Shown in pieces: positions 8,166 through 50,898 of a stretch of DNA of 64,000 bases (positions are counted from its first letter, which is position 1; each line of letters opens with the position of its first letter). The notes under the pieces are model-generated. The model saw nothing but the letters and a program-made list of their open reading frames with translations, ran no database searches and was not told where the DNA came from. Where the stretch lies: positions 162,885 through 226,884 of the forward strand of contig CBDBBL010000018.1 in the NCBI GenBank assembly GCA_965203125.1, given 5' to 3'. A program made the position numbers and the translations under genes. The stretch is from Gammaproteobacteria bacterium. GTDB taxonomy: Bacteria > Pseudomonadota > Gammaproteobacteria > CBDBBL01.

Positions 8166-8338
8166 GAACTATCTATTAATAACTTTTGCAATTGGCGAAT
8201 AAATTGAATTTAGTTTTAAATGTTTTAATTGAGAAAAACCACAGTAACAGCAAGCTATTGCGCGGATTTTTCGATTGAAAAACATTTGAAAATGATTTTA
8301 ATTTAGATGAGAATTGTGAAATTTATTAATAGATACTT
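8166..8338. repeat. MITE-like repeat, family 1 (copy A), filling the guaB-guaA intergenic space
   Basis: About 90% identical to the reverse complement of 42484-42660; imperfect terminal IRs GGAACTATCTATTAATAACT / ATTTATTAATAGATACTTCC; palindromic core CAGCAAGCTATTGCG. Confidence 0.55.
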
Positions 8339-8353
8339 CCCTAGGAGTGCATT

Positions 8354-9886
8354 ATGTCTAACATTCTCATTCTTGATTTTGGCTCACAATATACACAACT
8401 CATTGCTCGACGTATTCGCGAAATCGGCGTGTACTGCGAACTCTACCCTTTTGATTGTGACCCTAAAGATATTCAAGCTTTTAACCCAGCAGGCATCATC
8501 CTCTCAGGTGGACCAGAAAGTGTCACCAGCGACAATGCCCCACAAGCGCCCAGCATTATTTTCGACATGAGCATCCCCATTCTAGGTATTTGTTATGGCA
8601 TGCAAACTATGGCAACCCAACTGGGTGGAAAAGTAGCGGTTAGCGAACATCAAGAGCTAGGCGCGGCAACTTTAAAGGCTCAGCATCCTTGTTTATTATT
8701 AAACACCACCAACACGCTCGATGTATGGATGAGCCACGGCGATCATGTTAGCGAATTACCTCCACAGTTTGCGACCACCGCTACCACAAAATACGCACCG
8801 ATTGCAGCGATGGCACATCAATCTAAACCTTGGTTTGGATTACAATTCCACCCCGAAGTAACACATACACCACAAGGCCTAGAAATATTACAGCGCTTTG
8901 CACTGGATATCTGTCAGTGCCCAATTACCTGGCAGCCTACACAAATGATTCAACAAGCAACTGAAGAAGCAAAAAAATTAGTCGGGGATGACCATGTTAT
9001 TCTTGGTTTATCAGGCGGTGTTGATTCTTCAGTCGTTGCCATGCTTTTACACCAAGCAATTGGCAAGCAATTAACTTGTATTTTTATTGACACTGGCTTA
9101 TTGCGAAAAAATGAAGCCACTGAAGTCATCGCACTTTTTCAACAACACCTGCACCTTAACCTAATTCATATTGATGCAAAGAATCGATTTATTGATGCAC
9201 TAAAAGGTCTTGATGAACCAGAGCTCAAAAGAAAAACGATTGGTCGCATTTTTATTGAAATCTTTGAAGAAGAGTCGAAAAAAATTCCACAAGCAAAATG
9301 GCTCGCCCAAGGGACTATCTATTCAGACGTTATTGAATCCGCAGCAACAAAACATGGTAAAGCACACGTGATTAAATCACACCATAATGTGGGCGGATTA
9401 CCTAAAGAAATGAAGCTTAAAATATTAGAACCTGTACGCCACTTATTTAAAGATGAAGTCAGAAAAGCAGGACTAACACTTGGATTACCTCACAACCTGC
9501 TCTATCGGCACCCGTTTCCTGGACCAGGTCTTGGTGTACGTATTTTAGGCGAGATCAAAACACAGTATGTCAATATACTGCAACAAGCAGATGCGATATT
9601 TATTGAATCCCTCAGAGAGGAAAACCTATACGATCAAGTCAGCCAAGCATTTGCTGTCTTTCTTCCAGTGAAGTCGGTTGGTGTGACGGGAGATCAGCGT
9701 TGTTATGATTACGTCATTGCACTACGAGCCGTAGAAAGCATCGACTTTATGACTGCACACTGGGCAGAGTTGCCTCATTCATTTTTAAGGCAAGTTTCAA
9801 ACCGTATTATTAATGAAGTTTCTGGTGTCTCCCGCGTGGTCTATGATATTTCAGGAAAGCCTCCTGCTACGATTGAGTGGGAGTGA
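8354..9886 (+). CDS. guaA: GMP synthase (glutamine-hydrolysing) GuaA
   Basis: 510 aa; N-terminal class-I glutamine amidotransferase, ATP-PPase loop SGGVDSSV, conserved C-terminal dimerisation region. Confidence 0.95.
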
Positions 9887-10634
9887 ATAATGACCTCTCA
9901 TAACGCACTGCTTCAAAACACAAACCATGTGGTGGCGCAGTCACTCCTGCTTGCTTTCTATCACGACTTTCTAGAACTGTTTTAGCCCAATCTAAAGGCT
10001 GAACCCCTTGCCCAATGTCAATCAGCACTCCGACAATATTACGCACCATGTGATGTAAGAATGCATTGGCTTCGATTTCAAGGGTAATCACATTACCCTC
10101 ACGCTTCACCGCAATCTCTTCGACACAACGCTGGGCAGTATGCGATTGACAACCCGTCGCACGGTAAGCACTAAAGTCATGCAACCCAACAAGGTGTTGC
10201 GCAGCTTCATGCATTTTTTCTGCATCTAGTTGATATGGAATATGTGTCATTTGCTCGAAATCAAGCGCGCTATTAATGCGCTGATTAAAAATTCGATAAC
10301 AATAACGTCGAGATTGCGCTGAAAACCGCGCATGGAAATCATCTACAACAGCGACACTTTTGAGTATACGAATATCACACGGTAACTTTGCATTACCACC
10401 TGTCGTCCACTCTGACAACTCACGTTTTGCACTGCTTTCAAAATGAATGACTTGCCCTATCGCATGAACACCCGCATCAGTGCGCCCAGCACAATATAAT
10501 TTAACCGGATGATTCGCTATCATACTCAATGATTGCTCAAGAAGCCCCTGAACTGTCGGCAGATCACTCGAAGACTGCCGCTGAAAGCCATGATAAGCAC
10601 TACCTTTATAACTAATTAAGCAGGCAATTTTCAC
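9867..10634 (-). CDS. truA: tRNA pseudouridine(38-40) synthase TruA
   Basis: 255 aa; [21 protein letters not shown]-terminus and GRTDAGVHA catalytic Asp motif. Confidence 0.9.
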
Positions 10635-11688
10635 TTCTCTTTAATCTGCTCCAGCAACTGAGCTGCTTGCTCTGCTAGGTCACTCTTTGGAGAATGAAGG
10701 ACTTCTTGCAAAGCATCTCTAGCCGCAGAATAATCACCCATTTCAATATAGGCTCTTGCCAAATCTAGTTTTGCACCAACACCCTCATTAGAACCTAAAT
10801 AATCATAATCATCATCAGGTGATGCGACCTGTGGTGTCTCAACAGAATTCATCGCCACAGGTACTGTTTCCAACGATGCTTTCATACGCCGCGTTTTCAC
10901 CCATAGCATAAGCAACAACAACAATAGGAACCCAATCGCACCACCACCACCATATAGAATTACTTGATGTAACTGCGCCACCTTATCTTGTAATTGCGTC
11001 ATCCTTGGTTGAATAACCATCAGCTTTTTAGCTAATTGATGCCCATGCTGCTTTTGCATCTCCAACTGTGAACGCCAGTTATCTTCCAGCGTATGCACTT
11101 TTGTCATTTGCGAGGATGTCATCTCTTGAATCTTCTCAAGCTGCTGCTGCGTTTGTGCCACACGGTGATGAACTGCCTCCACTTGCACAGATTGCTTGTT
11201 TAATATCAACGTATTGTGCTGTTGCTGGACTAACAATTCAGCGACTTGCGTCTTTAACTGGTTTACAAAACCATCTTCACTATGAAGCAAGCGTTTAACC
11301 ATCGTTTCAAAAGTTGCTGTACCCTTATACCTTGAGGAGGCTTTACTTTTTGAACCGAAGCCTTTCCATTGACGATTTTGCTCACGAATTAAGCGCAATG
11401 CTTGAATATCACTCACCTGTCGAGCTTGTCTTAATGTGGGTATGCGTAGCTGTACATTTTTCTGCAATCCATTAATATTATCTTTCAAAAACAAAGTATG
11501 ATTCAACTTAAACAATGCAACCATCATTTGTTGTGTAGTCACCGCCTTGCTGTTATTCAATTGTGTTGCAATCTGCCACAAGCGATCACTCGGCTTTACC
11601 TGCCAGTATTGAACATCAGCCATACAAGCATTAGCCAGTAATAAAGCAACCCCAAACATACCTACCTTACTTAAAGATGTCGGCATTT
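10631..11688 (-). CDS. FimV-like protein (LysM domain, C-terminal FimV motif), short form
   Basis: Start taken at internal Met giving a signal peptide (MPTSLSKVGMFGVALLLANACMA); LysM-like YWQVKPSDRLWQIA; coiled-coil region; TM segment; C-terminal LDLARAYIEMGDYSAARDALQEVL FimV motif. The fimV-truA adjacency is conserved. Confidence 0.55.
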
Positions 11689-11979
11689 TAACAGGCTTAT
11701 TTAGGTATGATATACACACAATTGTTATCTTTTTTATCGTTTGAGCTAACACGATATTTCTTCCAAGTTAAACTTTCCGACATCATAGCGAAAAACAGTT
11801 CAACTTGAAATCAATTCCAACAACAAAAGATGACATTTTTTAACTAATGAACAAGCAGTCATTAATCATAAAAGCCCCACGGCAATCGCACCGAGATATT
11901 TCGCACAACGACTTGCTTTAGTGATTAAAACCCTGTAAAAATGGTTCTGTCGCAAACAAGAGGCAATGTGCTAAACTGA

Positions 11980-12244
11980 GTGAAAAATCACTGGAGCGAA
12001 CAGATGGCAATCGACTTTGCAGGAAGACATTATCCAAAAGATATCGTGTTATGTGCAGTGCGTTGGTATTTAGCGTACTCGTTGAGCTACAGAGATGTAG
12101 AAGAACTGCTGTCAGAGCGAGGAGCCGCTCCAGATCACTCAACAATTCAGAGATGGGTAGTGAAGTACGCACCACAATTAGAAGCTGAGTTTCGAAAACG
12201 TAAAAAGCAAGTAGGCAACAGCTGGCGAATGGATGAGACGTACA
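11980..12244 (+). CDS. IS6-family transposase, exon 1 (N-terminal part)
   Basis: Translation FAGRHYPKDIVLCAVRWYLAYSLSYRDVEELLSERGAAPDHSTIQRWVVKYAPQLE...WRMDETY is collinear with the IS26 Tnp N-terminus (GRHFQRDIILWAVRWY...HMDETY); ends at the intron 5' splice site. Confidence 0.8.
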
Positions 12245-14524
12245 GTGCGCCCAGCCTTTGGAGGCATCAAGGAAGAAGCTGCCGAAGCTTGAGCATGTTT
12301 GGAATGCGCTCATCAAACTAAGGAGTAAAAAAAAAATGAGTGCCTGAATCCTGTCATGAGGATTGTGTGAGCCGAAGCGGCGGTGATCTGCTGTGCATTA
12401 GCAGAGTGACGGAGCCCGTGGGAAACGGGATGTGAGGCGAGGTCGTTACGCCAAGATGCATCTCTAGGCTGAGTATTGGAAGGTTGAGGAACACGAACCG
12501 ATTAAATCGTATCTATGGGCTGAAACGTCGCCATCACCTACACGATCTAATAGGTGATATTCAAGCTGGTGAAAGAATAGATGTATGATTCTTTCACCCA
12601 AATTCTAGCATAAATGTAGGATGCTGGAAGGGTATCATGAAGAGAGCATGACTAGCTCATGATGCTTGATACAACTTGCAGAGCGCAAGGTTAAAGAATG
12701 CGATCGGCAACCTAACCAGTACACTTGAGTCCAGCATGTGGAATGGGGAAGGTTTATTGAAATGATAAGGGAATGCGACCCCAATGATCAATAAGCTGGC
12801 GGAGCTTTCGTAGTAGTCTGAGACAGGGAGAACCTGTTACATGGCGAAGGAAGGCAGTTTAAGTGATTTGTTTGGCAGATTACCTGCCTATAAAGAGGTG
12901 AAGACCTATGATAATCAGAGAAATGCAAAACAAATTAGCAAAGTGGTCTTTAGAAAATCGCGAGCGAAAGTTTGATCGATTACTAAGGATGATTGCAAAC
13001 CGGTCATGGTTGCAAGAGGCGGCTCGTGTCACGCTAGCATCATCAGGTGCTAGAACAGCAGGAGTTGATGGAGTAAACAAGCAGGTAATGGAGGGAAACC
13101 TCCTAAAAGAGTTGGCATTGATAAGTTCTGAGCTACTAGCAGGGAGCTATCAACCACAACCAGCCAAGCGAGTTTATATTCCCAAAGCTAACGGCAAACA
13201 AAGACCGCTAGGAATTCCGACATTACGAGACCGAATTGTGCAACGTGCTATGTTGATGGTTATGGACCCTATCTGGGAAAGCGACTTTCATCGCTTGTCT
13301 TATGGGTTTCGACCAGAACGCAGTGTTCATCATGCAGTCCGCACACTGAAAATTCAATTACAAGACGGTGGTTACACCTCAGGACGCTGGGTGATCGAAG
13401 GTGATCTGTCCAGCTATTTTGATACGGTGCATCACCGATTGTTAATGAAGTGTGTAAAAAAACGGATACGTGATCAACGCTTTCTGACATTGCTGTGGCG
13501 ATTCATCAAAGCAGGACATATCGACAAGGGTCTATTTAACGCAGCTAGTCGAGGGGTTCCCCAAGGCGGAGTAATCTCGCCATTATTATCCAATTTAATG
13601 CTCAATGAATTTGATCAATGGTTGGATAAAAGGAACTTGTCTAAAAAAGCACGCAAAGACCGTTGGTATTGGAATGATAGTATTAAACGGCAGCGCAACA
13701 TTGCTATCCAAAAAGGACGACAGTGGAAGCCTGCCGTTGCTTACTGTCGCTATGCAGATGATTTTGTTATAGTTGTAAAAGGAAGTAAAGCACATGCTGA
13801 GGATATTCGTAAAATGTGTCAGCAGTTTTTAGAAAGAGATCTCAAACTAACATTAAATATGGATAAAACTCATATTACACATGTTAATGATGGGTTCACT
13901 TTTCTAGGTCACCGCCTGATACGTAAGCGAGGATCCGAAGGAAGAATGCGGACTGTAACAACGATTCCTCAATGTAAGTCTAAAGCATTTGCGTTAAGCG
14001 TGAGCAAAGAGCTTACAAGTAATCATAGCGTGAATAAAACTGCCATGATAGAGAAGCTCAATCGCAAAATTATTGGTTGGGCAAATTTTTACCAACACAC
14101 TGATTTCACAGCTATTGTGTACCAGAAAATTGACAGAATAATATTCTGGAAACTAGCGCACTGGCTAGCTCGGAAATACCGAACTAGTGTCAAGTCGCTA
14201 ATGCGCAAATGGGTGAATCGACCGGAAGAAAGCAAAGCAAAAACTTGGCAGCTGTCTGGTCACAGTGAAAATGGAAAATATATCAAAGTGTCGTTACGAC
14301 GATTGGTAACCAGTCGTAAAATGACATTTCGCTGGCGTAATCCTGAAAGCAACCCGTATTTGATACGGGAAGAAGTCAGGAGCACAGTTACATCACGCTA
14401 TCATGAAATTGCAATGGCGATGCGTCACACTTAAATGGAGAGCCGTATGCGCTGAGAGGTGCACGTACGGTTCGGTGAGGAGAGATAGGGAAATAGTTCG
14501 ACTACGCCCTATCTCTTACTCTAC
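12245..14524 (+). mobile_element. Group II intron (ribozyme plus intron-encoded protein)
   Basis: 5' end GTGCG at 12245; near the 3' end a domain V-like hairpin GAGCCGTATGCG...CGTACGGTTCGG (about 14446-14476) followed by a domain VI-like hairpin; RT/maturase ORF inside. Joining 12244 to 14525 restores an uninterrupted IS26-like reading frame (MDETY-IKARGKWTYLYRAVD). Confidence 0.8.
12908..14434 (+). CDS. Group II intron reverse transcriptase/maturase (intron-encoded protein)
   Basis: 508 aa; RT domains with RPLGIPTLRDRIVQ, FDTVHH, YCRYADDFVIVV (YADD active site), and maturase X domain (IIGWANFYQH). No obvious HNH endonuclease motif at the C-terminus. Confidence 0.9.
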   Translation: MIIREMQNKLAKWSLENRERKFDRLLRMIANRSWLQEAARVTLASSGARTAGVDGVNKQVMEGNLLKELALISSELLAGSYQPQPAKRVYIPKANGKQRPLGIPTLRDRIVQRAMLMVMDPIWESDFHRLSYGFRPERSVHHAVRTLKIQLQDGGYTSGRWVIEGDLSSYFDTVHHRLLMKCVKKRIRDQRFLTLLWRFIKAGHIDKGLFNAASRGVPQGGVISPLLSNLMLNEFDQWLDKRNLSKKARKDRWYWNDSIKRQRNIAIQKGRQWKPAVAYCRYADDFVIVVKGSKAHAEDIRKMCQQFLERDLKLTLNMDKTHITHVNDGFTFLGHRLIRKRGSEGRMRTVTTIPQCKSKAFALSVSKELTSNHSVNKTAMIEKLNRKIIGWANFYQHTDFTAIVYQKIDRIIFWKLAHWLARKYRTSVKSLMRKWVNRPEESKAKTWQLSGHSENGKYIKVSLRRLVTSRKMTFRWRNPESNPYLIREEVRSTVTSRYHEIAMAMRHT

Positions 14525-14976
14525 TCAAGGCACGTGGAAAATGGACTTATTTGTATCGAGCTGTTGATAAGTCAGGTAAGACAATTGACTTTATGCTCAG
14601 TGAAAAACGAGATAAAGAAGCAGTACTAAAGTTCTTCAAAAAAGCGATCAATTCACATGGAAGTCCTGAGACAGTGAACATTGATAAGAGTGGTTCCAAC
14701 ACCTCAGCACTGAATCATATCAATGCACTATATTGGGTTGCTGGCTTATGGATGCTAGTGATTAATATTAGGCAGAATAAGTATCTCAATATTATTGTAG
14801 AGCAAGACCACCGAGGAATTAAGCGAGTTTTGAAAACTTCCACTTGGTTCAAATCATTTTCAAATGCTGCCGATACTTTGGCAGGAATTGAACTTCACCG
14901 TATGCTTAAAAAAGGCCAGATGAAAAACTCTGATGGAATGACTGTTTGGGAGCAATTTTATTCGCTTGCAGCATAA
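14525..14976 (+). CDS. IS6-family transposase, exon 2 (C-terminal DDE part)
   Basis: Translation ...GKWTYLYRAVDKSGKTIDFMLSEKRDKEAVLKFF...VNIDKSG...IEQDHRGIKRV...GIELHRMLKKGQ matches the IS26 Tnp C-terminal catalytic region (YLYRAVD...INTDKAP...ECDHGKLKR...GIEVMRALRKGQ). Confidence 0.8.
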
Positions 14977-15436
14977 TTGCGTCCTCGATATAGTTACCTC
15001 TTCACCTCAGTGTCTTTTTGCGACAGAACCTAATATAGCCTGTGGTGCATTAGTGGATCTATACATATTATCTAGTGTGTCCCTAAAATCGATAAACATC
15101 AACTTCCTTTCTGACCAAGATATTGAAAATGAAATTGCGAAGCTTAAAACATTACAGGACAAAAGTGTAGTGTTCAGTCAGTTACTGAGCATGTGCGGAG
15201 TAATTTTATATAAATTAAAAGAACTTAGTGATGATACAGCTCTGGGTGTAGTAGAAAAAAATATTCACTTCCTTCTATCTGTGATTGAAGGGCTAAATCA
15301 TATCGTTAGCACCTCTCAACGTGATGATATAGTTATGAAATGCAGACAACGTGTTTTATTGTTATCCAATGCTGGTATGAAATTGAAAAGTTACTACCTA
15401 CCAACTTCTAGCGTTGGCTTTGCACCATTAGCATAG
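14966..15436 (+). CDS. Hypothetical protein (5' end overlaps the IS6 right end; possibly truncated by the insertion)
   Basis: 156-aa ORF, no recognisable motif; its first 22 codons lie inside the IS. Confidence 0.2.
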   Translation: MQHNCVLDIVTSSPQCLFATEPNIACGALVDLYILSSVSLKSININFLSDQDIENEIAKLKTLQDKSVVFSQLLSMCGVILYKLKELSDDTALGVVEKNIHFLLSVIEGLNHIVSTSQRDDIVMKCRQRVLLLSNAGMKLKSYYLPTSSVGFAPLA

Positions 15437-15586
15437 CTAGGAAGAACAAATAGCTATGCCATATAATACAGATCAAAACCAAAATGTTGTAAGTACCATG
15501 ACTGGCAGGCATTACAAATGTTCGCTTTAAGGTCTGAAAAACGGATTATATTCGCTTTCACTTTTAAAAGCGAACTTTTGAGACCA

Positions 15587-16681
15587 CTATAATTGCAACT
15601 GGGTGAGTTGATCTATTTGATGCTCTCGTGCCAGTGCTTTGAGCAACTCAGTGATATTACCCTCGATCATTTCTGGTAGCTTATACAGCGTGAGGTTAAT
15701 ACGGTGGTCCGTTACTCGACCTTGAGGATAGTTATAGGTGCGAATTCGCTCGGAACGATCACCACTACCGACTAAGCTCCGTCTTGTGTCTGCTTGTGAT
15801 TGCTGTTGTTTGTTCTGTTCTGCCGCGAGTATTTTTGCATTGAGTAGTGACATCGCTTTGGCTTTATTTTTATGTTGTGATCTTTCGTCTTGGCATTCTG
15901 CAACGACTCCAGTAGGGATATGCGTAATGCGTACAGCAGAGTCAGTTGTATTGACATGCTGTCCACCAGCGCCTGATGCTCGATAAGTATCAATACGCAA
16001 ATCTTCATTTTTTAACTCAATCGCTTCAACCGCTTTCACTTCTGGCATGATTGCCACGGTACATGCCGAGGTGTGCACTCTGCCTTGGGATTCTGTTTCT
16101 GGTACACGCTGTACACGATGTGCGCCTGATTCAAATTTCAATTGTGCATAGACCTTATCACCACTGATTTGGCTGATGATTTCTTTGTAGCCACCGTGAT
16201 CACCTTCGCTTGCGCTGACAACGTCAAGCTGCCAACGCTGTCTTTCGGCATATTTGCTATACATGCGAAATAAATCACCAACGAAGATAGCAGCTTCGTC
16301 ACCGCCTGTTCCTGCGCGAATCTCAAGAAAAATATTACATTCATCGTTAGGATCTTGAGGAAGTAAGAGGCGTTGCAATTCAGTGTTTAGATCATTTTGT
16401 TGAGACTGTAATTGTAGAAGCTCTTCCTTTGCCAGTGCTTTCATCTCCACATCATCACTGGTATCAATGTCACTTAGCATTTCTTCAGTGGAGGCAATTT
16501 CCTCACAGGTTTGTTGATAGTGTGAAAAGCAAGTGACAATAGGTTCTAAGTTTGCATACTCTTTGGATAGTTCACGGAAACGGTTCTGGTCACTCATGAT
16601 TTCTGGTTGGCTCAGTAGGCCGCTGATTTCTTCATGGCGATGTTGAAACTGCTGTAGCTTAAGTTCGATTTTAGGTGTCAT
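15587..16681 (-). CDS. prfA: Peptide chain release factor 1
   Basis: 364 aa; GGQ motif ([25 protein letters not shown]) and RF1-type PxT-region architecture; prfA-hemA adjacency conserved. Confidence 0.95.
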
Positions 16682-17987
16682 GAGCGTCTAATCCCAATAA
16701 TTGTTTCGCGTTTTGTAATAATTGAGCATCGCCAATTTTTGCTGCTTCTTTGAGTGCCAGCGTGGGTGCGTGCAATATTTTGTTTGATAATTGAGTCGAT
16801 AAGTGTTGTATTATGTGAGCTGGATCTGTGCCTTTTTTGAGTGAGCATTGGGCCTTGTTCAAACAATGATTTGCTAATTGACGGACTTGTTGTCGGTAGG
16901 CTTTAATAGTGTCAACAGCATCTAGTGTGCGCAGTTGCATCATATACTGTGTGGCTTCTGCGGCAATCATGCCTTCGGCTTGTTTGGCTGCTCCCGAGCG
17001 ATGTTGTTGTGTTTTTTGGACAATGGCACGTAGGTCGTCGATATTATATAAACTCACATGGTCAATTTCGGTTACTTCAGGTTCAATATCTCGTGGAACA
17101 GCTAAATCAAACAGCATGAGGGGGTGTTGCTTGTCCCGCTGTAGCATGATGCGCTCTAATAACCCTTTACCAAGTAAGGGAAGTTGACTGGCGGTTGCGG
17201 AGCAGACAATGTCGATGACTGGTAATGTGATTGGGATTTCAGCAATTTGAATGGCCTTGGCTTGAATTTCTGCCACTGGTTTTGATTTTGCTTGTGTTGG
17301 ATGCTGAATGGTTTGAGAGAGTTGTTGGGCTTTCTCCAGTGTGCGATTTGCAATGGTGAATTTTCTGATGCCTAGTTTTTTTAAATGGAAGGCGCAAAGC
17401 TCTATGGTATCACCAGCACCAATGAGTAGTGCATGTTTGTTGGCGAGTTGTTTTTCTGTGAGAGGTCCAAATAATTGTTTTGCTTGTAAACTTGCACAAT
17501 AAGCAATCGACATGGGGCAGCGGCTAATATCTGTCTGAGTTCTCACATGTTTGCTGACATTAAAAACAGTTTGCATTAATTGATTAAAGCGTTTTCCAAT
17601 GAGTCCATGTTTTTTTGCCAGTTGTACAGCAGATTTAACTTGCCCAAATATTTGTGGTTCTCCTAATACCATGGAGTCTAAGCCACAAGCAACACGCATG
17701 AGGTGTTCAATAGCAGCTTGATCGCGATGAACATAACTATGAGTAGTTAATAGGCTGGGGTCAAGTTGATGTGTTTTGGCAAGCCATGCAAAGGCAGCCT
17801 CTGGTTCAATGTTGGTGCTATAGAGTTCGGTGCGGTTACAAGTGGATATTAAGACTGCTTCGTTACTTGCGTGAGTTGTTTTGATGGACTCGAGTATAGA
17901 GATCGTGTTGGCCTCATTCATTGAGACTTGCTCCCTTAACTCGATGGGTGCGGTGTTATGATTGATGCCGATGGTGATTAAGTTCAT
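16671..17987 (-). CDS. hemA: Glutamyl-tRNA reductase HemA
   Basis: 438 aa; N-terminal catalytic domain ([11 protein letters not shown]), NADPH-binding GAGDTIE motif. Confidence 0.9.
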
Positions 17988-19873
17988 GTGGGCGCCTGAT
18001 TTTTTCCACTTTGCTTCTTCAGGTAAATCAATAGTAGTGATATTGCCGCAGGCGTCATGCCGGCGATCTGTTTTGCTTGTGCGATGGTTTCTGGCTTCGT
18101 TGTTGTTAATTTCTGCCGCAATTCATTGGAGAGTCCTTTCACTTGGTCATAATTGATGTCTTTAGGCAACTTGAGGGTATGATAGCGCTGCTGTTTGTCG
18201 ATTTCCTCTTGTTGGCGTGCGATGTAGCCTGCATATTTGATTTGAGTTTCAATTTGCTCAATGACGATTGCATCATCTGACATCGTTGCATCTAACAATG
18301 TTGCTAGATTGCTGAGCTTCAGTTCTGGACGACGCAATAGCTCATTGGCAAAGATGGGTTTGGTCAGGGCTTGCCCTAATAGTGGTGTTAGCGCAGCTGC
18401 TAACGGTGAGTCGGGTTGAATGCAATATGCTTTGAGTGTTTCCATGCCGCTTGTGATGGCAGTTTGTTTTTTACAAAAACAACCCCAACGTTGTTGATCA
18501 ATCAGTCCCATTTCGTGAGCAACGGGTGTGAGTCGTTGATCGGCATTATCCTCGCGAAGGAGTAAGCGATATTCTGCTCGAGAGGTAAACATGCGGTAAG
18601 GTTCTTGAGTGCCATTGGTGATTAAGTCATTAATGAGTACACCGATATAAGCTTGATCACGACGAGGAGACCAAGCTGTTTTCTTCTGCACACGATGTGC
18701 TGCATTAATGCCAGCAATGATTCCTTGTGCTGCTGCTTCTTCATAACCTGTTGTACCGTTAATTTGTCCAGCAAAGAACAATCCATCGATGATTTTGGTC
18801 TCTAGACTTTCAGTCAGGTCTCTAGGGTCAAAATAATCATACTCAATGGCGTATCCAGGGCGTGTAATCCAGGCATTTTCAAACCCTTTAATCGATTGTA
18901 CAAACTGTTGTTGTACGTTTAAAGGTAGGCTGGTTGAAATACCATTAGGGTAAATTTCAAAGCGATCTAACCCTTCAGGTTCAATAAAGATCTGGTGTTG
19001 ATCTTTATCTGCAAAGCGATGAATTTTATCTTCAATGGATGGACAGTATCTCGGACCAACCCCTTCGATGTCACCGCTAAACATGGGAGACTGATGCAAA
19101 TTATCAGCAATAATTTGATGAGTGGTTGGGTTGGTATAAGTGATATGACAGTTGACTTGTTGTGGATGATCAGTTGCTTTTCCCATGAAGGAAAACACAG
19201 GGATTGGTTGATCGCCTGACTGTGCTTCTAACGATTGATAGTTAATACTTCTGCTATCAATACGTGGTGGTGTGCCTGTTTTTAAGCGATCGACACGAAA
19301 TGGTAATGCACGCATGCGTTGTGCTAGGGCAATGGCTGGTGGATCTCCAGAACGCCCGCCTGCGCTTTGTTTAAGACCAGTGTGAATACAGCCCCCTAAA
19401 AAAGTACCCACTGTCAGCACAACGCTTGAGGCAGAAAAGGTGATGCCTGTTTGAGTCACAATGCCTGTGACTGTATTTTTTTTGATGTTAATGTCATCAA
19501 CGGCGGCTTGAAAAATCGTTAAATTGGTTTGCTGTTCTAATAGGCGTCGAATGGCACTTTTGTATAAAGATCGATCAGCTTGTGCGCGTGTGGCACGAAC
19601 GGCGGGACCTTTGCGTGCATTGAGTGTTCTGAACTGAATCCCTGCTTGATCAATGGCTTGAGCCATCAGTCCACCGAGCGCATCGACCTCTTTAACTAAG
19701 TGTCCTTTGCCGATCCCGCCAATGGCTGGATTACATGACATCTGTCCGAGCGTGTCAATATTATGGGTGATTAATAGTGTATTAGCACCGATGCGTGCTG
19801 AAGCTGCTGCCGCCTCAATACCAGCATGTCCTCCACCAACAACGATGACGTCAAATTGTGTTTTTTTACGCAT
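17984..19873 (-). CDS. mnmG: tRNA uridine 5-carboxymethylaminomethyl modification enzyme MnmG (GidA)
   Basis: 629 aa; FAD-binding N-terminus [15 protein letters not shown], conserved [18 protein letters not shown] segment. Confidence 0.95.
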
Positions 19874-19928
19874 TGATGTTATTATAAACGAGTATTGGGC
19901 TTTTTTGAATAGAATTGGAGGGGGTATT

Positions 19929-20267
19929 ATGAGGATCGGAAGAAAGGATTTGCTGAGTTTGAGGGGTCAAGCGCAGGATATGTTAGATTTAATCAATTAT
20001 GGGCAGGCTGGGTGCCAACCTCAAAATCATTTGCTAGGGTTAATATACGAATTGCGGCAATTTATTGATGTGGTTAATCATGTTGCGGCTCATATTTTAA
20101 GTATGAGGGAAGAAGTTTATCGTGAGATTGTAGATGGTTTTTCGAGCTCTTATCAAGGTTTTGGGTTATATGGTTCGCAGATGACAGGAGTTTTGAAAGA
20201 AAAAATGAGGTTATTTGTTGGAAGGTGTCAGCAAGTGTTTAATATACCATGCGCGATTACATTCTAA
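19929..20267 (+). CDS. Hypothetical small protein between mnmG and the T6SS genes
   Basis: 113-aa ORF starting MRIGRKDLL; no recognisable motif. Confidence 0.25.
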
Positions 20268-20274
20268 TTATAAG

Positions 20275-41105: not shown

Positions 41106-42508
41106 TTTTCAGGATGCTTTTTAGGCCGCTGCCAGTTGTCGATTTGCTTTTGCTTACTACGAGTCAGTGCAAGATTGTTTTCTTCAACTGATTGAGTGAT
41201 GACAGAGCCTGCACCGATAGTGCTGTTTTTTTTCAAGGTGATAGGTGCGACGAGTGCACTGTTAGAGCCGACAAAAACTTGATCTTCAATGACAGTTTGA
41301 TGTTTATGTGCGCCATCATAGTTGCAGGTAATCGTGCCCGCACCAATGTTTACTTTTTCTCCAATGGTAGCGTTGCCTAGATAAGCTAGATGATTGGCTT
41401 TGCTGTGAGCGCCCAGTGTGGTTTGCTTGGTTTCTACAAAGTTGCCAATTTTTACTGATTCTTTTAAGTGTGTGTTAGGGCGAATGCGTGCAAAAGGCCC
41501 GACTTCACAATGACTTTCTATGACAGAATCTTCAATGATAGAGAAAGGGTGGATAGTAACATGGTCGCCAATCTGGCTGTTTCTGATGATGCTGTTAGCA
41601 CCAACTTGGCAGTGTGAGCCAATCTGAGTGTTACCGATTAAGATGACGTTGATGTCTAGCATGCTATCTTGCGCTATCTGAATATTGCCTCGAATATCGA
41701 TACGGGTAGGGTCTTGGATGGTGACACCATGGCTCAACCAGTGTTGAGCTTGCGTGCGTTGATAGTGGCGTTCAAGTTCAATCAATTGTTCTCGTGTGTT
41801 GATGCCTTTGACTTCGTGTTGATCTGGGCATGAATAGCTAAATACAGCGGTGTGTTGGGCCGAAAGTGCAATGATATCGGTGAGGTAGTATTCTTGTTGT
41901 GCATTTTGCTTGCTTAAGTTGGGTAGCCATTGCTGTAGTTGTGTTGCAGGGGCGGTAATGATGCCAGTATTGATTTCTTTAATTTCTTTTTGTGCTGTGT
42001 TGGCATCTTTTTCTTCAATAATTGCAGTGATGCAGCTTGCTTTGTTATGGGTTTGGTTGCGGATGATGCGGCCAAATCCTGTGGGTGTATCAACATGGGC
42101 TGTGATTAAGCCAGTGGCTTGATGGTTGCTTGGTTCAGTCGCTATGTTGAGTAGTGCTTGTAGGGTATCAGTGGTGATCAGTGGCATGTCACCAACTAGA
42201 ATTAATACTCGATGATGTGGTGGTATGTGAGGTAATGCTTGTTGTACTGCATGTCCAGTGCCAAGTTGTTGTGCTTGATGAACCCATGTGATGTTAGCTT
42301 GGGTGATTGCTTTTTTTAATTTTGCACCATTATCACCATGGACGATAAACAGATGTTTGCTGAGTGTTTTTGCGGTGTCAACAATGTGCGCGAGCATTGG
42401 TTTTCCTGCTAGCTTGTGTAATACTTTTGGTGTGTCAGATTTCATGCGGGTACCCTGCCCCGCAGCGAGAATGACAATGCTTAGGAACTGTCCATTAATA
42501 ACTTTCAC
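41102..42508 (-). CDS. glmU: Bifunctional GlmU (UDP-GlcNAc pyrophosphorylase / GlcN-1-P acetyltransferase)
   Basis: 468 aa; N-terminal VILAAGQGTRMKSDTPKVLHKLAGKPM (compare E. coli [28 protein letters not shown]); C-terminal left-handed beta-helix hexapeptide repeats. The first 8 codons from the GTG start lie within the terminal IR of MITE copy E. Confidence 0.9.
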   Translation of the reverse strand: MKVINGQFLSIVILAAGQGTRMKSDTPKVLHKLAGKPMLAHIVDTAKTLSKHLFIVHGDNGAKLKKAITQANITWVHQAQQLGTGHAVQQALPHIPPHHRVLILVGDMPLITTDTLQALLNIATEPSNHQATGLITAHVDTPTGFGRIIRNQTHNKASCITAIIEEKDANTAQKEIKEINTGIITAPATQLQQWLPNLSKQNAQQEYYLTDIIALSAQHTAVFSYSCPDQHEVKGINTREQLIELERHYQRTQAQHWLSHGVTIQDPTRIDIRGNIQIAQDSMLDINVILIGNTQIGSHCQVGANSIIRNSQIGDHVTIHPFSIIEDSVIESHCEVGPFARIRPNTHLKESVKIGNFVETKQTTLGAHSKANHLAYLGNATIGEKVNIGAGTITCNYDGAHKHQTVIEDQVFVGSNSALVAPITLKKNSTIGAGSVITQSVEENNLALTRSKQKQIDNWQRPKKHPEK

Positions 42509-42660
42509 AGCTGATCACCTATAATAAATTCACTGTCAAATTTTTTGCAATCGAAAAATCCGCGCAATAGCTTGCTATTACTGTGGTTTTTCTCAATTAA
42601 AAAATTTAAAATTAAATTCATTTTATGCGCCAGTTGCAAAAGTTATTAATGGACAGTTCC
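42484..42660. repeat. MITE-like repeat, family 1 (copy E), with 20-bp terminal inverted repeats, overlapping the glmU start
   Basis: GGAACTGTCCATTAATAACT (42484-42503) and its reverse complement (42641-42660); interior about 90% identical to the reverse complement of 8166-8338. Confidence 0.6.
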
Positions 42661-42665
42661 TTAAG

Positions 42666-43529
42666 TCAGATGCTTGAGCCAATGGATTCTCCCATTTTAA
42701 TTGCCTGTTCACACGTTATAGTGGAATCAAACTGAATAGCATCTTTTTGCCATAAGCATACTGTAGTTGATCCGAGTAAGAATTGTCCCATTTCCTCACC
42801 TTTTTGCAAAGTGATTGCTTGGGATGCTTCTTTGTAATCCCAGGTTTGCATTTGCTTTTTATGCCCATATCCTTCACGAATGAGTCCGTGCCAAGGCACT
42901 TTAATACTAGCAACAATCATGGCGCCAACTAAAATTACAACAAAGGTATGTTGCCCATTATCAAATTCGCAAATTAAACGCTCATTGCGTGCAAATAAAT
43001 TGGGAACATGTCTTGCAGTTGCATGATTCACTGAAAACAATTTCCCAGGAACGTAAGTCATTTTTTTCAGTGTGCCAGTTTCTGGCATATGGACTCGATG
43101 ATAATCTTTTGGAGATAAATAGGTGGTCATGAAGTGACCGCCTAGAAATTTTTCACTTAAGAGTTTATCGTTTCCAAGTAGTGCATTGAGTGTAAAATGT
43201 TGGGCTTTGGCTTGAATCAGTGTGTCGTGATCAATGGAGCCAAACTGGCTGATCTCGCCATCAGCAACACTGACAACACTTCCAGTTTGACTGTCAATAG
43301 GGCGTGCTTCAGGCTTCAGCTGACGAGTGAAGAAATCATTGAAACAGGCATGCTCAGTTGCTTCACTAACCAGTGCTTCGCTCAGATCAATTTTGTAGCG
43401 TTGTTTAAATGAGAGGATGAAGTTATTTTTTAGCCATGGTTGTTCGCTACGAGCCAGTTTTCCCATTAGCCAAGTAATCAGGCGTTGCGGTAAAATGTAT
43501 TGAAGCGCAATAAAACATACTGTTCTCAT
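42666..43529 (-). CDS. psd: Phosphatidylserine decarboxylase proenzyme
   Basis: 287 aa; TTYLSPKDYHRVHMP, PGKLFSVNH, NLFARNERLICEFD and LGSTTV (self-cleavage region) collinear with E. coli Psd. Confidence 0.9.
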   Translation of the reverse strand: MRTVCFIALQYILPQRLITWLMGKLARSEQPWLKNNFILSFKQRYKIDLSEALVSEATEHACFNDFFTRQLKPEARPIDSQTGSVVSVADGEISQFGSIDHDTLIQAKAQHFTLNALLGNDKLLSEKFLGGHFMTTYLSPKDYHRVHMPETGTLKKMTYVPGKLFSVNHATARHVPNLFARNERLICEFDNGQHTFVVILVGAMIVASIKVPWHGLIREGYGHKKQMQTWDYKEASQAITLQKGEEMGQFLLGSTTVCLWQKDAIQFDSTITCEQAIKMGESIGSSI

Positions 43530-43619
43530 AAATTAACATCCCTTATCATCTTCTCGCTGATTGAGAAGATATGTTATATGATTATCCTTGTCCCCGAGAA
43601 ATTGCGAGCATATTTTAGC

Positions 43620-44714
43620 ATGAGTGCAGATGGAATGGAAACTTATTTAGTGGGTGGAGCGGTGAGAGATGAATTGCTTGAGCTACCTGTGAAAGAGCGA
43701 GACTGGGTTGTGGTAGGTAGTGATCCTGCACAGATGATTCAGCAGGGGTATCGCTTGATTGGAAAAGATTTTCCAGTTTTCTTGCACCCTAAAACTCAAG
43801 AGGAATATGCGTTGGCGCGTACAGAGCGTAAGACTTCTCATGGGTATCGAGGGTTCCAGGTGTATGCCGATCAAACAGTAACCTTAGCTGAAGATTTATC
43901 ACGTCGTGACTTAACTATTAATGCGATTGCAAAAGATCAGTATGGACAGCTTATTGATCCTTTTGAGGGAGTAGCTGATCTTAAGCGTAAAAGATTACGT
44001 CATGTTTCTTCTCGTTTTAGTGAGGATCCAGTGAGAATTTTGCGTTTAGCGCGATTTGCAGCGATGTTGCCTGATTTTTCGATAGATGATGAAACATTAG
44101 CTCTGGCAGATTCAATGATTAAGTCAGGTGAGGTTGATGCTCTGGTAGCAGAAAGAGTATGGCAGGAGTGGTATAAGGCACTGGCTATGCCAGCGCCGTG
44201 GCGATTTTTTGAGGTGTTGACGGCTTGTGGGGCGTTGTCTAGGTTAATGCCTGAGTTAAGTTCGCAGATTGATTGGCGGGCAGTGCTGGGTGGTACCACA
44301 AGTGCTGATGATCGTTTTGTTGTGTTAGCAAGCTTGTTAGCTGTCGATCAAATTAAAGCGTTATGCCAACGATTTCGAGTGCCAATCAAACTGACGAAGT
44401 TGGCAAGGTCTGTAGGTCTGGCACAACAGAAACACATGACTATGCAAGCAGAAGTTGTTGAATGGTTGCATCTATTTAATCAATTTTCTGTGTTGAGAGG
44501 GCATGATAATTTCATGACGATGATGCATTTATTGCAATGGAGTGATGAATTGCAAGCCTTGGCAGATGTTTTGTTATTGGCGTATTGCTCGACTGATGTG
44601 AAGAAAATTGTAGCGACAGGTCTGTTGGGAAAAGAGTTACAGCAAGCGATTCTGCAAGCTAGAACACTTAATGTTCAATCTGCCCTAAATTTGCATCGAT
44701 TACAGCACCATTAA
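43620..44714 (+). CDS. cca: CCA-adding tRNA nucleotidyltransferase
   Basis: Start MSADGMETYLVGGAVRDELL (class II nucleotidyltransferase head GGAVRD...RDLTINA); the listed ORF start at 43500 overlaps psd and is rejected. Confidence 0.85.
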   Translation: MSADGMETYLVGGAVRDELLELPVKERDWVVVGSDPAQMIQQGYRLIGKDFPVFLHPKTQEEYALARTERKTSHGYRGFQVYADQTVTLAEDLSRRDLTINAIAKDQYGQLIDPFEGVADLKRKRLRHVSSRFSEDPVRILRLARFAAMLPDFSIDDETLALADSMIKSGEVDALVAERVWQEWYKALAMPAPWRFFEVLTACGALSRLMPELSSQIDWRAVLGGTTSADDRFVVLASLLAVDQIKALCQRFRVPIKLTKLARSVGLAQQKHMTMQAEVVEWLHLFNQFSVLRGHDNFMTMMHLLQWSDELQALADVLLLAYCSTDVKKIVATGLLGKELQQAILQARTLNVQSALNLHRLQHH

Positions 44715-45390
44715 TCACTGGGTTGGTCGCGCAAAAATATAAGCACTTGGCAATTTCTTGTGGTGTGATCAGACGTTGTTGGGTGACACGTTGTTTGATT
44801 TCTTCCAAGCGTGATTGATCATTGCCCATATGTGAGATTAATAGTTCAGTTTCAGTAAAGCCAGGGCAAATACAGGCAGTATGAATGCTGGGATATTTGA
44901 TCAAATCTTGACAGGTGGCGCGCATTTGCCCCAGCGTCGCATGCTTGTTGATAATATAATTTGCTGCGCCTGCAATCGCTTTGTGCGATAAGGTTGAGCC
45001 AACATATAATAAGCTAGATGCTTTCCCCATGTGGTCAATCACGGTTTGATTGAGCAGTGCGGGTGCAATCAAGTTGGCATGTAAGCTATCTGCCATTTGT
45101 GACGCATCTGTTTCAAAGCTGTGATTGCTGTAATAATGGTGTGCGTTATGAATCAAACAAATTTGTTGATTAGGTGTGGCTGATAGCTTTTCCTTTAGGG
45201 TGTTTATGGCGGCATTGATTTGCATGGTGCTGGTAAAGTCAACGCTAACGTTAACTACTGAGCTTTTGAACTGAGGTGGTGAGCAAGCTGAGCGGGAAAG
45301 ATTGATTACTTGCCAGTCTTTCGTCAAAAAATGCTGTGCCGTTGCCAAGCCAATACCGCGGCTGGCACCTGTAATGATGAGTGTTTTCAT
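44668..45390 (-). CDS. Short-chain dehydrogenase/reductase (SDR) family oxidoreductase
   Basis: Start MKTLIITGASRGIGLA (TGxxxGIG NAD(P)-binding motif); about 240 aa; ATGA start/stop overlap with the upstream PTPS-like gene. Confidence 0.7.
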   Translation of the reverse strand: MKTLIITGASRGIGLATAQHFLTKDWQVINLSRSACSPPQFKSSVVNVSVDFTSTMQINAAINTLKEKLSATPNQQICLIHNAHHYYSNHSFETDASQMADSLHANLIAPALLNQTVIDHMGKASSLLYVGSTLSHKAIAGAANYIINKHATLGQMRATCQDLIKYPSIHTACICPGFTETELLISHMGNDQSRLEEIKQRVTQQRLITPQEIAKCLYFCATNPVINGAVIDANLGQIEH

Positions 45391-45884
45391 GATAACTGTT
45401 TCCATTGAGAGTTGCCGCTTTGTCCTGGTCCAGAAAAGATGCTGATATCGATTTGTTGTACGCTATCATCTTGAGTTTGCGAGTCTTGTGAAATCTGCAA
45501 AGTAAACCACCGTGCGAGTTCTTCAACCGTGATATTGCGTATCGGCAGTAATTTGACATCTTTATTGAGAAATGGGATGACTTCATGGTTGAAATGTACA
45601 TAGCAGTGAGATGATGTTTGTTCAATTTGTGTGTGAGGTGAGTTTTCTGCAAGTAATGTGTATTCGTTTAAAAACTTGCAAAGCTCAATGAGTCGTCTTT
45701 TGTAATACTTGTAATTAAAGGTCATACCATTATCATCGATGCCAGCGGTTATTTGGCAACGTACAGTGTAATTATGTCCATGTAGGCGTTCGCGTTCAGT
45801 CGCAGAGAAGATCGTAAAATGAGCAACAGAGAATTTCATAGCTTCTTTTTGCAGCTCAATGGTTGTCGTATTATTCGATGTCAT
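45387..45884 (-). CDS. 6-pyruvoyl-tetrahydropterin synthase / QueD-family protein
   Basis: 165 aa; ERERLHGHNYTV (zinc-binding HGH motif) and overall PTPS-like size. Confidence 0.6.
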   Translation of the reverse strand: MTSNNTTTIELQKEAMKFSVAHFTIFSATERERLHGHNYTVRCQITAGIDDNGMTFNYKYYKRRLIELCKFLNEYTLLAENSPHTQIEQTSSHCYVHFNHEVIPFLNKDVKLLPIRNITVEELARWFTLQISQDSQTQDDSVQQIDISIFSGPGQSGNSQWKQLS

Positions 45885-47023
45885 AATAAATGTCTCAGAT
45901 CATGAGTGGCATTGAGGGTTAATTCGGACAGGTTTTTTGTTAATACCATTGCTTTAAATTTCTCCCCCATTTGATCGGGGAAGATAAGTTGTTTAATGGA
46001 CTGTTGATGATTGTAGGTTTCGATGGTGGTTGAGTCAATTGCGCCTTGATTGATTTCATCTGTGATGCCGCAGTCGAGCAAAAAATGCCCTTGTGTTTGA
46101 TAGCTGGCAACTTGCATGTCAACTGCCAGTGCTGCCTCAGCAACTGCAGTAAAGTTGACAAAGCAAGTGAGGTCTTGTTGTCCAGGGATTGCCAGTAAAT
46201 CATCGTGTGCTTTATGTTGGTAGTGAGCAAGTGCAGTTCCCGAGTGGCGTTCTGGTGCATAAAAGCTTGCTTGCTCAAAGCCGTAGTCAATCAATATGAC
46301 CAGTCCACTGTTGAGCATGTGACTGATGGCTGCAACCCATGGAGCTATGTGAGTGTGAATTTCAGTGTGATAGGGTGACTCAATGGGTTGATGCAGGGTT
46401 GCGGTGATTGTGTTTAATTGTTTTTGCAACTGAGTATCAAGTGGCTGTGTGCTCCACTTCAGATGATCTTTCTCGATTTGTACTACTTTTTCTTTCCACT
46501 GTGATTGTTGATGGGTGATAAGATGAAAAGGTAGGGCATCTAGCACTTCATTGGCGAGTACAATGCCATCAAATTGCTCTGGAAGTGTATCAATCCAGCT
46601 AACAAGCTTGAGCAGTTGGGGTGCGCGATTCTGTAACTGCTTTTGTTGTTGTTGGCGTAAAAATGGGCTGAGTTCCATAATGTAATAATGCGTTGGTAAG
46701 CTTTGTTGTTGTTCTAAGTAAAGTAATAAATCAGTTGCCATGGTTCCCAGGCCAGCTCCGAATTCTAGTATCTTCAAGTGATTGGAGTGGCTTGTTTGTT
46801 TGTGGTCACATAAAGCGTGTTGTTTGATGATGAAGCGAGCGAGTGATTGAGAGAATGTAGGGGATATTTCAGGTGCGGTTGTGAAGTGGCCTTCTTGACC
46901 AATGGGTAGGGCGCCATTGCTATAAAACCCGAGGGTTGGATGATAGAGTGCGGTTTCCATAAAAGTCGAAAAACTAATGCGCTGGTTACCATAGGTTTGG
47001 TAGAGGTGATTTTGTATTGTCAT
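45881..47023 (-). CDS. Class I SAM-dependent methyltransferase, MidA/NDUFAF7-like (COG1565/DUF185)
   Basis: 380 aa; FMETALYHPTLGFYS...GHFTTAPEIS...ILEFGAGLGTMA pattern typical of this family. Confidence 0.65.
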   Translation of the reverse strand: MTIQNHLYQTYGNQRISFSTFMETALYHPTLGFYSNGALPIGQEGHFTTAPEISPTFSQSLARFIIKQHALCDHKQTSHSNHLKILEFGAGLGTMATDLLLYLEQQQSLPTHYYIMELSPFLRQQQQKQLQNRAPQLLKLVSWIDTLPEQFDGIVLANEVLDALPFHLITHQQSQWKEKVVQIEKDHLKWSTQPLDTQLQKQLNTITATLHQPIESPYHTEIHTHIAPWVAAISHMLNSGLVILIDYGFEQASFYAPERHSGTALAHYQHKAHDDLLAIPGQQDLTCFVNFTAVAEAALAVDMQVASYQTQGHFLLDCGITDEINQGAIDSTTIETYNHQQSIKQLIFPDQMGEKFKAMVLTKNLSELTLNATHDLRHLL

Positions 47024-47033
47024 GATGGTTTCA

Positions 47034-47193
47034 TACCCAAATCACATGAAGACACCAAGCTTTAACGGCATGAGTTCGGCAGAATGCAAATCTAAAAATT
47101 CTCGCAATAGCGGTGCTATTGCTCCATCTTTTAAATCTGATTCTGCTCAAACTCATTATGTTAAGGCCTCGGTGTCTTCATGTGGTTTGGGCA
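47034..47193. repeat. MITE-like repeat, family 3 (copy F)
   Basis: Inverted repeats TACCCAAATCACATGAAGACACC / GGTGTCTTCATGTGGTTTGGG; interior nearly identical to copy D (24685-24850). Confidence 0.6.
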
Positions 47194-50854: not shown

Positions 50855-50898
50855 CTACTAAAGATGGAGGAGGACGGGTGTTATTTACAGGAGAGCTA

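Follow-up and report, generated by a model that had tools for sequence, protein, structure and literature searches.

Palindromic elements at gene junctions of a gammaproteobacterium as probable MITEs that share a central stem-loop with elements of unrelated ends

What are the short palindromic repeats that lie between housekeeping genes in a 64,000-nucleotide stretch of DNA from the gammaproteobacterial lineage CBDBBL01 (contig CBDBBL010000018.1 of assembly GCA_965203125.1, positions 162,885 to 226,884; hereafter the window), and how could they have come to lie there? A sequence-only reading of the window noted six of them and proposed either non-autonomous transposable elements or structured small-RNA or protein-binding modules. 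We conclude, with a probability of about 0.8, that they are MITEs (miniature inverted-repeat transposable elements): palindromes over their whole length, moved by DDE transposases supplied in trans, and part of a modular superfamily that has a common centre. The mobility of the window’s own copies is our inference, and the MITE assignment is reinforced because sister families with the same centre in other genomes show target-site duplications and an IS5-type end.

Site reading combined with an unbiased repeat search of the window identified six intergenic, non-coding elements of 155–177 bp, with refined limits that leave out the flanking repeats and fall within 1–10 nt of those first proposed. 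Each is an imperfect palindrome over almost its whole length, with arms of 60–87 nt (70–81% complementary) and terminal repeats of 26–31 nt (89–92% complementary). Terminal inverted repeats had been claimed and are present, but the pairing is not confined to the ends. A check of the RNA fold had also been suggested, and the six elements have RNA-fold z-scores of −7.9 to −14.9 relative to dinucleotide shuffles.

As first suggested, the end sequences divide the elements into three subfamilies, for which all copy counts refer to the window: subfamily A (c3 and c4, 79% identical), subfamily B (c2 and c6, 84%) and subfamily C (c1 and c5, 86%). Identity between A and B is 65–75%, and that between C and either of the others is 55–62%, essentially at the apex only. 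Between subfamilies A and B, 14 of 67 base pairs are altered on both sides, a pattern of compensatory change.

The apex common to all three subfamilies reads (G)CAATAGC-loop-GCTATT(A/G)C. The core pattern CAATAGCN{2,3}GCTRTTRCNNNNNNTTTT has seven matches in the window, all within the six elements (c6 matches on both strands), and none in 100 shuffles, which substantiates the shared core reported earlier. A relaxed search of the window found no cores beyond these six elements.

The two subfamily C copies have three-nucleotide flanks. c1 (176 bp, 8165–8340, minus strand, core at 8234–8260, terminal repeat GGAACTATCTATTAATAAC) separates the guaB stop from the guaA start and is flanked by TTA (8162–8164) and CTA (8341–8343). 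c5 (177 bp, 42484–42660, plus strand, terminal repeat GGAACTGTCCATTAATAACTTTCACAG, z-score −9.1) lies between the psd stop (42666) and glmU, flanked by TTA on both sides (42481–42483 and 42661–42663). Both subfamily B copies are 155 bp long and in plus orientation: c2 (24691–24845, terminal repeat CCCAGACTACTTGAAGATACTGTGC, z-score −13.9) sits between tssA (ImpA_N) and tssB (VipA) with TATA at 24687–24690 and 24846–24849, and c6 (47036–47190, z-scores −13.6 and −14.9) sits 10 nt upstream of a methyltransferase start (47023, minus strand) with CATA at 47032–47035 and 47191–47194, flanks that are direct and non-palindromic. The subfamily A copies are likewise in plus orientation. c3 (167 bp, 30013–30179, z-score −14.2) follows an open reading frame (ORF; 29547–30002), is flanked by TATA (30009–30012 and 30180–30183) and carries a 15-nt indel, ttagtaatcatcaaa, in its left terminal repeat (30015–30029). 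c4 (155 bp, 34378–34532, z-score −12.9) lies between the stop of a secretin gene (pilQ-like) and aroK, with TATA at 34374–34377 and 34533–34536.

A seventh, centre-deleted copy adds to the six full copies first counted. This 53-bp stump (34319–34371, no strand assigned) directly abuts c4, with which it meets at a TATATA site, and has TATA flanks of its own (34315–34318 and 34372–34375). On its left it resembles subfamily A and on its right c6; BLAST matches of the right ends of c3 and c4 and of the left end of c6 at 34313–34374 support it. Pfam assignments of the flanking genes (IMPDH/GuaA, ImpA_N/VipA, shikimate kinase/secretin, GlmU/PSD and Methyltransf_28) agree with the names given to them in the earlier reading. 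Its statement that every copy abuts genes needs amending in one respect: all copies lie in intergenic gaps, but the right neighbour of c3, 22 bp away, is a truncated IS6/group II intron remnant and not the start of a gene.

Copies confined to one region could in principle reflect local duplication or recombination of non-mobile sequence, and indeed no copy of subfamily A, B or C is known from outside this 64-kb window. Searches elsewhere gave nothing beyond chance for any of the three in metagenomes, plasmids, phages and E. coli genomes: a metagenome scan with an A/B-specific pattern returned three chance matches only, a viral scan with the core pattern returned two (both in coding sequence), and BLAST with whole elements or ends of A and B against plasmids, phages and E. 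coli genomes found no match, as did BLAST with a gammaproteobacterial centre as query. Such empty searches are expected because the source, a metagenome-assembled genome (MAG), belongs to a deep-branching and very isolated lineage; the nearest relatives of the window’s GuaA, among Vibrio, Rheinheimera and Methylococcales, are 66% identical at best. Against local duplication, homology breaks off precisely where the terminal repeats end and gives way to housekeeping genes that are unrelated, the pairs are 79–86% identical and occur in both orientations 4–34 kb apart, c4 adjoins a centre-deleted copy at a TATATA site, and the same architecture is multicopy, with duplications, in many other genomes. 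We therefore consider local duplication a very improbable source of the copies and return to transposition.

We identified relatives by scanning 185,579 species genomes with the core pattern. This gave at least 109 loci, where our own arithmetic would predict about 35 chance matches in the whole collection; the counts of sister elements that follow come from the matches listed. Outward extension from these core matches yielded at least 67 distinct palindromes of 143–186 bp, and among the matches listed none of the 67 lies inside a long ORF. They fall into at least 28 sequence-distinct groups (less than 25% shared 8-mers) with unrelated arms and ends. The other listed core matches are coding sequence or simple terminators.

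Four groups illustrate the range. The first, with ends GAGACCTTTGCACGAAAG... and 5-bp flanks, occurs in Thiotrichaceae, Piscirickettsiaceae, Thiomicrorhabdus, Arenicellales, Poriferihabitaceae, Alcanivoracaceae and Methylophaga. The second, with ends (TTAA)GGAACCTCTGATCAA... and 4-bp flanks, is found in Chromatiales, Sedimenticolaceae, Methylomarinum, Methylophaga, Endoriftia and four MAGs of Bacillota. The third, whose CCC... ends follow a TATA flank, comprises window subfamilies A and B and one other gammaproteobacterial MAG, and the fourth, with ends TTAAGTAGCTGGACA..., comes from Saprospiraceae. Carriers in Methylophaga and Thiomicrorhabdus are so far MAGs only.

A fifth group was opened by BLAST of a second-group element against plasmids, in which the match was confined to the central 47 nt (83%). 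Its carriers, all of them Betaproteobacteria in culture, are Cupriavidus basilensis DSM 11853, Cupriavidus sp. P-10, USMAHM13 and USMAA2-4, Ralstonia sp. RRA.1, Mitsuaria sp. 7 and Comamonas odontotermitis. The Cupriavidus and Ralstonia copies have ends that read TCCACTGAATCACTGAAATTGG after CTAG and the centre GCGTCGTTGCAAATGCTCGCAATAGCCGTGCTATTGCTGCGCTTTGCGCC; Mitsuaria, Comamonas and Cupriavidus USMAA2-4 match in the centre only and differ in the arms, and the Mitsuaria copy has a compensatory stem, CCATAGC/GCTATGG. Unit lengths are strikingly alike from group to group, at 157–160, 158–161, 154–155 and 157–158 bp, with window subfamily C longer at 176–177 bp. The shared centre is found with at least five unrelated end types and with duplications of 3, 4 or 5 bp, in Gammaproteobacteria, Betaproteobacteria, Bacillota and Bacteroidota.

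As a separate observation, three loci from Marivirga/Cytophagales (L075, L100 and L109) hold the apical stem GCAATAGC..GCTATTGC inside a different conserved palindrome of ~90 bp, which recurs in the three genomes within the same upstream sequence context.

The clearest evidence of insertion comes from the sister family with GAGACC ends. Flanks of 5 bp are identical in 18 of its 28 copies and alike at four or more of the five positions in 24 of 28, whereas permuting flanks among copies gave a mean of 0.75 identical pairs and a maximum of 5 (5000 permutations). These flanks are true target-site duplications. In the GGAAC sister family we observed the flanks TTAA, CTAA/CTAA (twice) and TTAT/TTAT, a weak test in that the target is itself a preferred sequence.

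The GGAAC family also provides a link to a transposase. Its terminal repeat agrees at all of 18 nt with the left end of a ~1.2-kb insertion sequence (IS), annotated as IS5-family, on Methylomonas sp. UP202 plasmid pUP202 (NZ_CP123898). The IS encodes a DUF772 N-terminal domain, has the left inverted repeat TTAAGGAACCTCTGATTAATTCC, is flanked by TTAA and CTAA and has no CAATAGC core. IS5-family targets are of the YTAR type, 3–4 bp long. Subfamily C starts with GGAAC and has TTA or CTA flanks; the direct identity to an IS5-family end was seen for the GGAAC sister family only. The C-type end GGAACTGTCCATTAATAACTTTCACA begins like IS5-family ends, and has a solo match of 25/29 nt on a Paraburkholderia plasmid, where no matching IS was identified. 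For the ends of subfamilies A and B no matching IS was found on plasmids, and among the loci from the genome scan neither the spacing of terminal-repeat pairs nor all-against-all BLAST revealed an autonomous IS.

Internally deleted and composite forms show which parts of an element are needed for insertion. One Thiotrichaceae MAG holds GAGACC elements in a 159-bp full form, a 77-bp centre-deleted form and a 212-bp form with a nested 53-bp insert, each with its own 5-bp duplication; in Cupriavidus KK10 a 60-bp centre-deleted copy is flanked by CTAG on both sides, and the window has its 53-bp stump. Centre-deleted derivatives with duplications are thus known from three lineages. Because such copies still carry duplications, the conserved centre is dispensable for insertion; because the composites have duplications of their own, they were mobilised as units.

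The 53-bp repeat itself, TATAGCAAGCTTAATAATTGAGTTGACCGTTTTGATAAAACGGCAAGCTCACTA, is nested in many GAGACC MITEs, always at one place within the left arm (L103:3550-3605, L007, L039, L083, L086, L089 and L093), with a Thiotrichaceae MAG (JALXAX01) and a Thiothrix MAG as hosts. We had considered the variant left halves in the Thiotrichaceae MAG as a candidate IS end and rejected it, as they are this nested insert among housekeeping genes.

In the mechanism that we favour, DDE transposases supplied in trans would insert the elements at targets that are very short and rich in A+T, namely TATA or YATA in the case of subfamilies A and B and TTA or a YTAR-like site in that of C, with an IS5-family enzyme the most likely candidate for subfamily C. 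The ~40-nt central domain would stay at the apex while arms and terminal repeats change from family to family, and elements that land in operon junctions would be co-transcribed as long RNA hairpins that alter the processing or translation of their neighbours. At 155–177 bp, the window elements are too short to hold a transposase gene. Terminal repeats, flanking repeats, dispersal, adjacent or nested insertion and a centre-deleted derivative, together with the duplications and the IS5-type end of sister families, bear out the transposon half of the original proposal.

Several observations weigh against this interpretation. In the window the flanks are TATA/TATA at c2, c3, c4 and the stump, CATA/CATA at c6, TTA/TTA at c5 and TTA/CTA at c1. 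The TATA flanks are uninformative for subfamilies A and B because they are palindromic and equal two extra terminal-repeat bases plus a TA duplication, so that among A and B copies only those of c6 are informative as a duplication; the flanks of c1 are unequal. No autonomous IS with matching ends is present in the 64-kb window, in which the sole transposase gene is an intron-split IS6 with different ends; many accepted prokaryotic MITEs have no known autonomous partner (PMC10969869). The near-invariance of the centre, described below, is in part a product of sampling, since a pattern or BLAST seed derived from the centre itself was used to collect the elements. Finally, plain cut-and-paste transposition by a DDE enzyme accounts neither for the strand polarity of the elements nor for why a centre not needed for insertion has been conserved.

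We examined the centre across 31 representatives. The domain spans ~40 nt: an A-run, 5–6 nt, an 8-bp stem (G)CAATAGC/GCTATT(A/G)C closed by a loop of 2–4 nt, a further 5–6 nt and a T-run, so that the apical stem is bordered by an internal loop of 5–6 nt and a stem of A-run and T-run. The apical stem is almost invariant; columns 27–44 pair as U·G in 21 representatives and as C-G in 10, and columns 28–43 as A-U in 29 and C-G in two. Three observations do not stem from the seed. The core occurs in end families that are unrelated yet share a genome (in a Thiotrichaceae MAG and in a Methylophaga MAG), it is present as well in copies located by their ends, and the betaproteobacterial copies, which came by BLAST, deviate from the pattern. 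Because loop length ranges from 2 to 4 nt but the stem keeps its sequence, we infer that the centre is recognised as a hairpin, not as two half-sites on B-form DNA.

No described family for the centre emerged from the databases and literature that we searched. At the gathering score, Rfam matches in the window were only a transfer-messenger RNA (tmRNA) and a group II intron domain V, none in an element; sub-threshold matches of the elements were to generic long hairpins (among them plant MIR precursors and WsnRNA46, the latter with 37 bits where 65 is the threshold), and the betaproteobacterial copies had no Rfam match. In the literature searched, including a 2024 review of prokaryotic MITEs, we found no description of the core or of MITE families with a common central domain.

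We next oriented the elements by their centre, taking the complement of the core pattern as the bottom strand. With RNA parameters, the predicted fold of the bottom strand is the more stable one for 61 of 63 elements (mean difference 19.8 kcal/mol); DNA parameters also give 61 of 63, with a mean difference of 7.6 kcal/mol, and four of five betaproteobacterial copies behave likewise. G·U-type mismatches number 386 on the bottom strand versus 134 on the top, and C outnumbers G on the top strand (2317 versus 1622). Orientation tracks neither the direction of flanking genes (17 versus 17) nor local GC skew (31 versus 19, p = 0.12; 26 versus 19 without the window), so that polarity is a property of the element itself.

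Two candidate sources of polarity were rejected: a replication-strand rule, which holds for 5/5 in the window but overall gives the same non-significant 31 versus 19, and mutation bias, for which only a weak trend was seen among GAGACC copies. Separately, GC skew in the window is negative before and positive after a flip near 12 kb, and c1, on the negative side, has the opposite orientation to c2–c6. One of only two elements with reversed polarity is of the GAGACC type (L054:647-807), and its central ~70 nt are inverted relative to the arms.

Polarity might suggest that we are dealing chiefly with genes for structured RNAs, or with cis-regulatory RNA hairpins made from one strand, that merely resemble transposons. 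The bias in folding and in G·U mismatches is what such RNAs would show, as are a conserved stem with a variable loop, the very negative z-scores and the placement inside operons. We nonetheless judge this account improbable: no promoter-like or terminator-like sites were found inside c2, c3 and c4 (the three copies in the scanned region), orientation is evenly split relative to flanking genes, no Rfam family matches at threshold, and typical of transposons are the terminal repeats, the target duplications, the copies without a centre and the IS5-type end. A role of the centre as a small-RNA or protein-binding module, the other half of the original proposal, may be an additional layer over the MITE interpretation rather than a rival to it.

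A short conserved palindrome apparently recognised as a hairpin, and a polarity suggestive of a single-stranded stage, are also reminiscent of REP/REPIN-type elements, which would be moved by a REP-associated tyrosine transposase (RAYT) acting on the central hairpin in single-stranded DNA. One carrier genome (L068) has a RAYT-like ORF. To our knowledge, HUH/Y1 enzymes (IS200/IS605 and RAYTs) make neither target duplications nor long terminal inverted repeats, whereas the elements have 5-bp and 4-bp duplications and long terminal repeats, and centre-deleted copies still have duplicated targets. Moreover, RAYT-like genes occur in only two of 117 loci and not in the window, and by reading of the sequence there is no GTAG-type REP head. 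A RAYT-based origin is accordingly among the least likely that we considered. The two RAYT-like ORFs, L068:7504-7998 (minus strand) and L021:5744-5914, come from two carrier genomes and are not adjacent to elements.

A different possibility is that past transposition spread sites that the host selects at the DNA level, such as palindromes bound by nucleoid proteins, gyrase or IHF in the manner of BIMEs, or replication hairpins. The centre is bordered by A- and T-runs and conserved although dispensable for insertion, and a unit length of ~155–160 bp is alike in five unrelated end families, all of which would fit. A loop of 2–4 nt between half-sites argues against a dimer on B-form DNA, however, the elements show no significant replication-strand association, and no binding-site consensus was recognised by inspection. 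Host-selected DNA sites thus seem to us an unlikely explanation, on a par with RNA genes.

Within the MITE interpretation, the centre could be a cargo module recognised in hairpin (single-stranded) form. We tentatively raise the further idea, which we hold to be possible but doubtful, that the ~40-nt stem-loop is a horizontally spread functional module that has been joined to varied transposon ends and is kept through strand-specific hairpin recognition, as RNA or single-stranded DNA, by a conserved factor. Its spread would, on the same tentative footing, cover at least three bacterial phyla, or four major lineages with Beta- and Gammaproteobacteria counted apart. If so, MITEs would be the vehicles of a mobile structured element, and the polarity and the unit length of ~157 bp would reflect how the module works.

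MITEs as such are ordinary. What is unusual here is a centre common at the nucleotide level to unrelated ends and differing duplication lengths; the elements also have in common a strand polarity of their own, independent of both transcription and replication. A functional centre would represent a new kind of mobile structured module, and cultured carriers (Cupriavidus basilensis DSM 11853, Ralstonia sp. RRA.1 and Comamonas odontotermitis) make direct testing possible.

The earlier suggestion that the elements affect expression of their neighbours finds a visible basis at two junctions. c5 lies 5 nt after the psd stop, and both the GTG start (42506–42508) and the Shine–Dalgarno sequence AGGTGAT (42514–42520) of glmU, on the minus strand, are inside its left arm. 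The glmU ORF (41102–42508) has this GTG as its first start, and upstream of the LAAGxGTR motif there is no further canonical one. Alignments with solved GlmU structures begin at query residues 6–12, opposite chain residues 4–16, which is why we regard the first ~8 codons as MITE sequence. As read from the sequence, glmU now uses a start codon and ribosome-binding site within c5. At the other junction, the last base of the guaB stop (TAG, 8163–8165) is the first G of the c1 terminal repeat; removal of c1 and one flank copy restores a compact junction, ...ATT TAG GAG TGC ATT ATG, in which the guaB stop overlaps the guaA Shine–Dalgarno sequence.

The four operon-internal copies would be co-transcribed with their neighbours. 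The strand that would enter the messenger RNA is the better-folding one for c1, c4 and c5; for c2 it is the weaker. Should the centre have a function, that function would also account for the tolerance of some MITEs inside essential operons.

The window has other features of note. At 11943–15000 a complete group II intron interrupts an IS6-family transposase gene: the C-terminal part of the transposase (14551–14976) matches DDE_Tnp_IS240, the intron’s reverse transcriptase/maturase ORF spans 12908–14434 and domain V spans 14438–14524. The remnant 22 bp from c3 (30205–30870) is a truncated inverted duplicate of this unit, with the 5′ part of the IS6 and ~360 nt of the 5′ end of the intron, 90–98% identical. 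Sixteen tandem 342-bp (114-codon) repeats, 96–100% identical, lie at 52300–57900 within very large ORFs (50878–59127) that probably encode a giant repeat adhesin; GC content there is 0.52 versus ~0.41 elsewhere, and there are apparent frame breaks between the ORFs. A tmRNA gene (36958–37331, 173 bits) lies just upstream of the pilus/secretin gene block.

Among known systems, the closest in architecture and placement are ERIC (IRU) and YPAL/RU-2. These are imperfect palindromes of 127–168 bp over their whole length, multicopy, intergenic and often inside operons, non-coding, without an identified autonomous partner and thought to act as co-transcribed long RNA hairpins (PMC10969869; PMC2759123). 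ERIC is present in E. coli (PMC10969869), and blastn (word size 11) of c2, the one copy used, against 5,426 complete E. coli genomes gave no match and so no similarity to ERIC; the published 168-nt Yersinia RU-2 sequence (PMC2759123) contains neither CAATAGC nor GCTATT. ERIC and YPAL differ from the window elements in ends and hosts, with no sequence similarity.

By ends, the nearest relative is the IS5 family: GGAAC opens both subfamily C and the GGAAC sister family, whose flanks are TTA, TTAA or CTAA. We know of no central module that ERIC or YPAL shares with elements having other ends. The likeness to IS5 has its own limits, in that no IS5-family IS with the window’s own ends was found, and neither subfamilies A and B (CCC... 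ends, TATA flanks) nor the GAGACC family (5-bp duplication) has an identified parent.

Correia elements of Neisseria resemble the window elements as MITEs of ~100–200 bp with terminal repeats, for which a length of 204 bp is given (PMC10969869). The REPINs mobilised with RAYTs are, like the elements described here, hairpin-forming, non-autonomous intergenic repeats around a short conserved palindrome, and their recognition takes place on single strands. Correia elements have a TA-containing target, are intergenic and co-transcribed, hold an internal IHF site and affect neighbouring genes; they have inverted repeats at the ends only, are restricted to one genus and are not known to be related in sequence to the window elements. 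As for REPINs, the window and sister elements have long terminal repeats, duplications, a single central palindrome in place of two REPs, and no RAYT linkage; given the duplications and terminal repeats, and without RAYT linkage, we do not class them as REP or REPIN elements. MITEs of Thiomargarita, also considered, have different sequences.

The nearest conceptual parallel is provided by the superfamilies of short interspersed elements (SINEs) in animals. The CORE, Deu and V superfamilies, among others, combine a highly conserved central domain whose function is unknown with varied mobilisation modules and multiple autonomous partners (PMC11481361). The parallel is an analogy only, between eukaryotic retrotransposons and bacterial DNA elements with inverted-repeat ends, but if the module idea holds, the elements described here would be a bacterial counterpart of these conserved-core SINE superfamilies.

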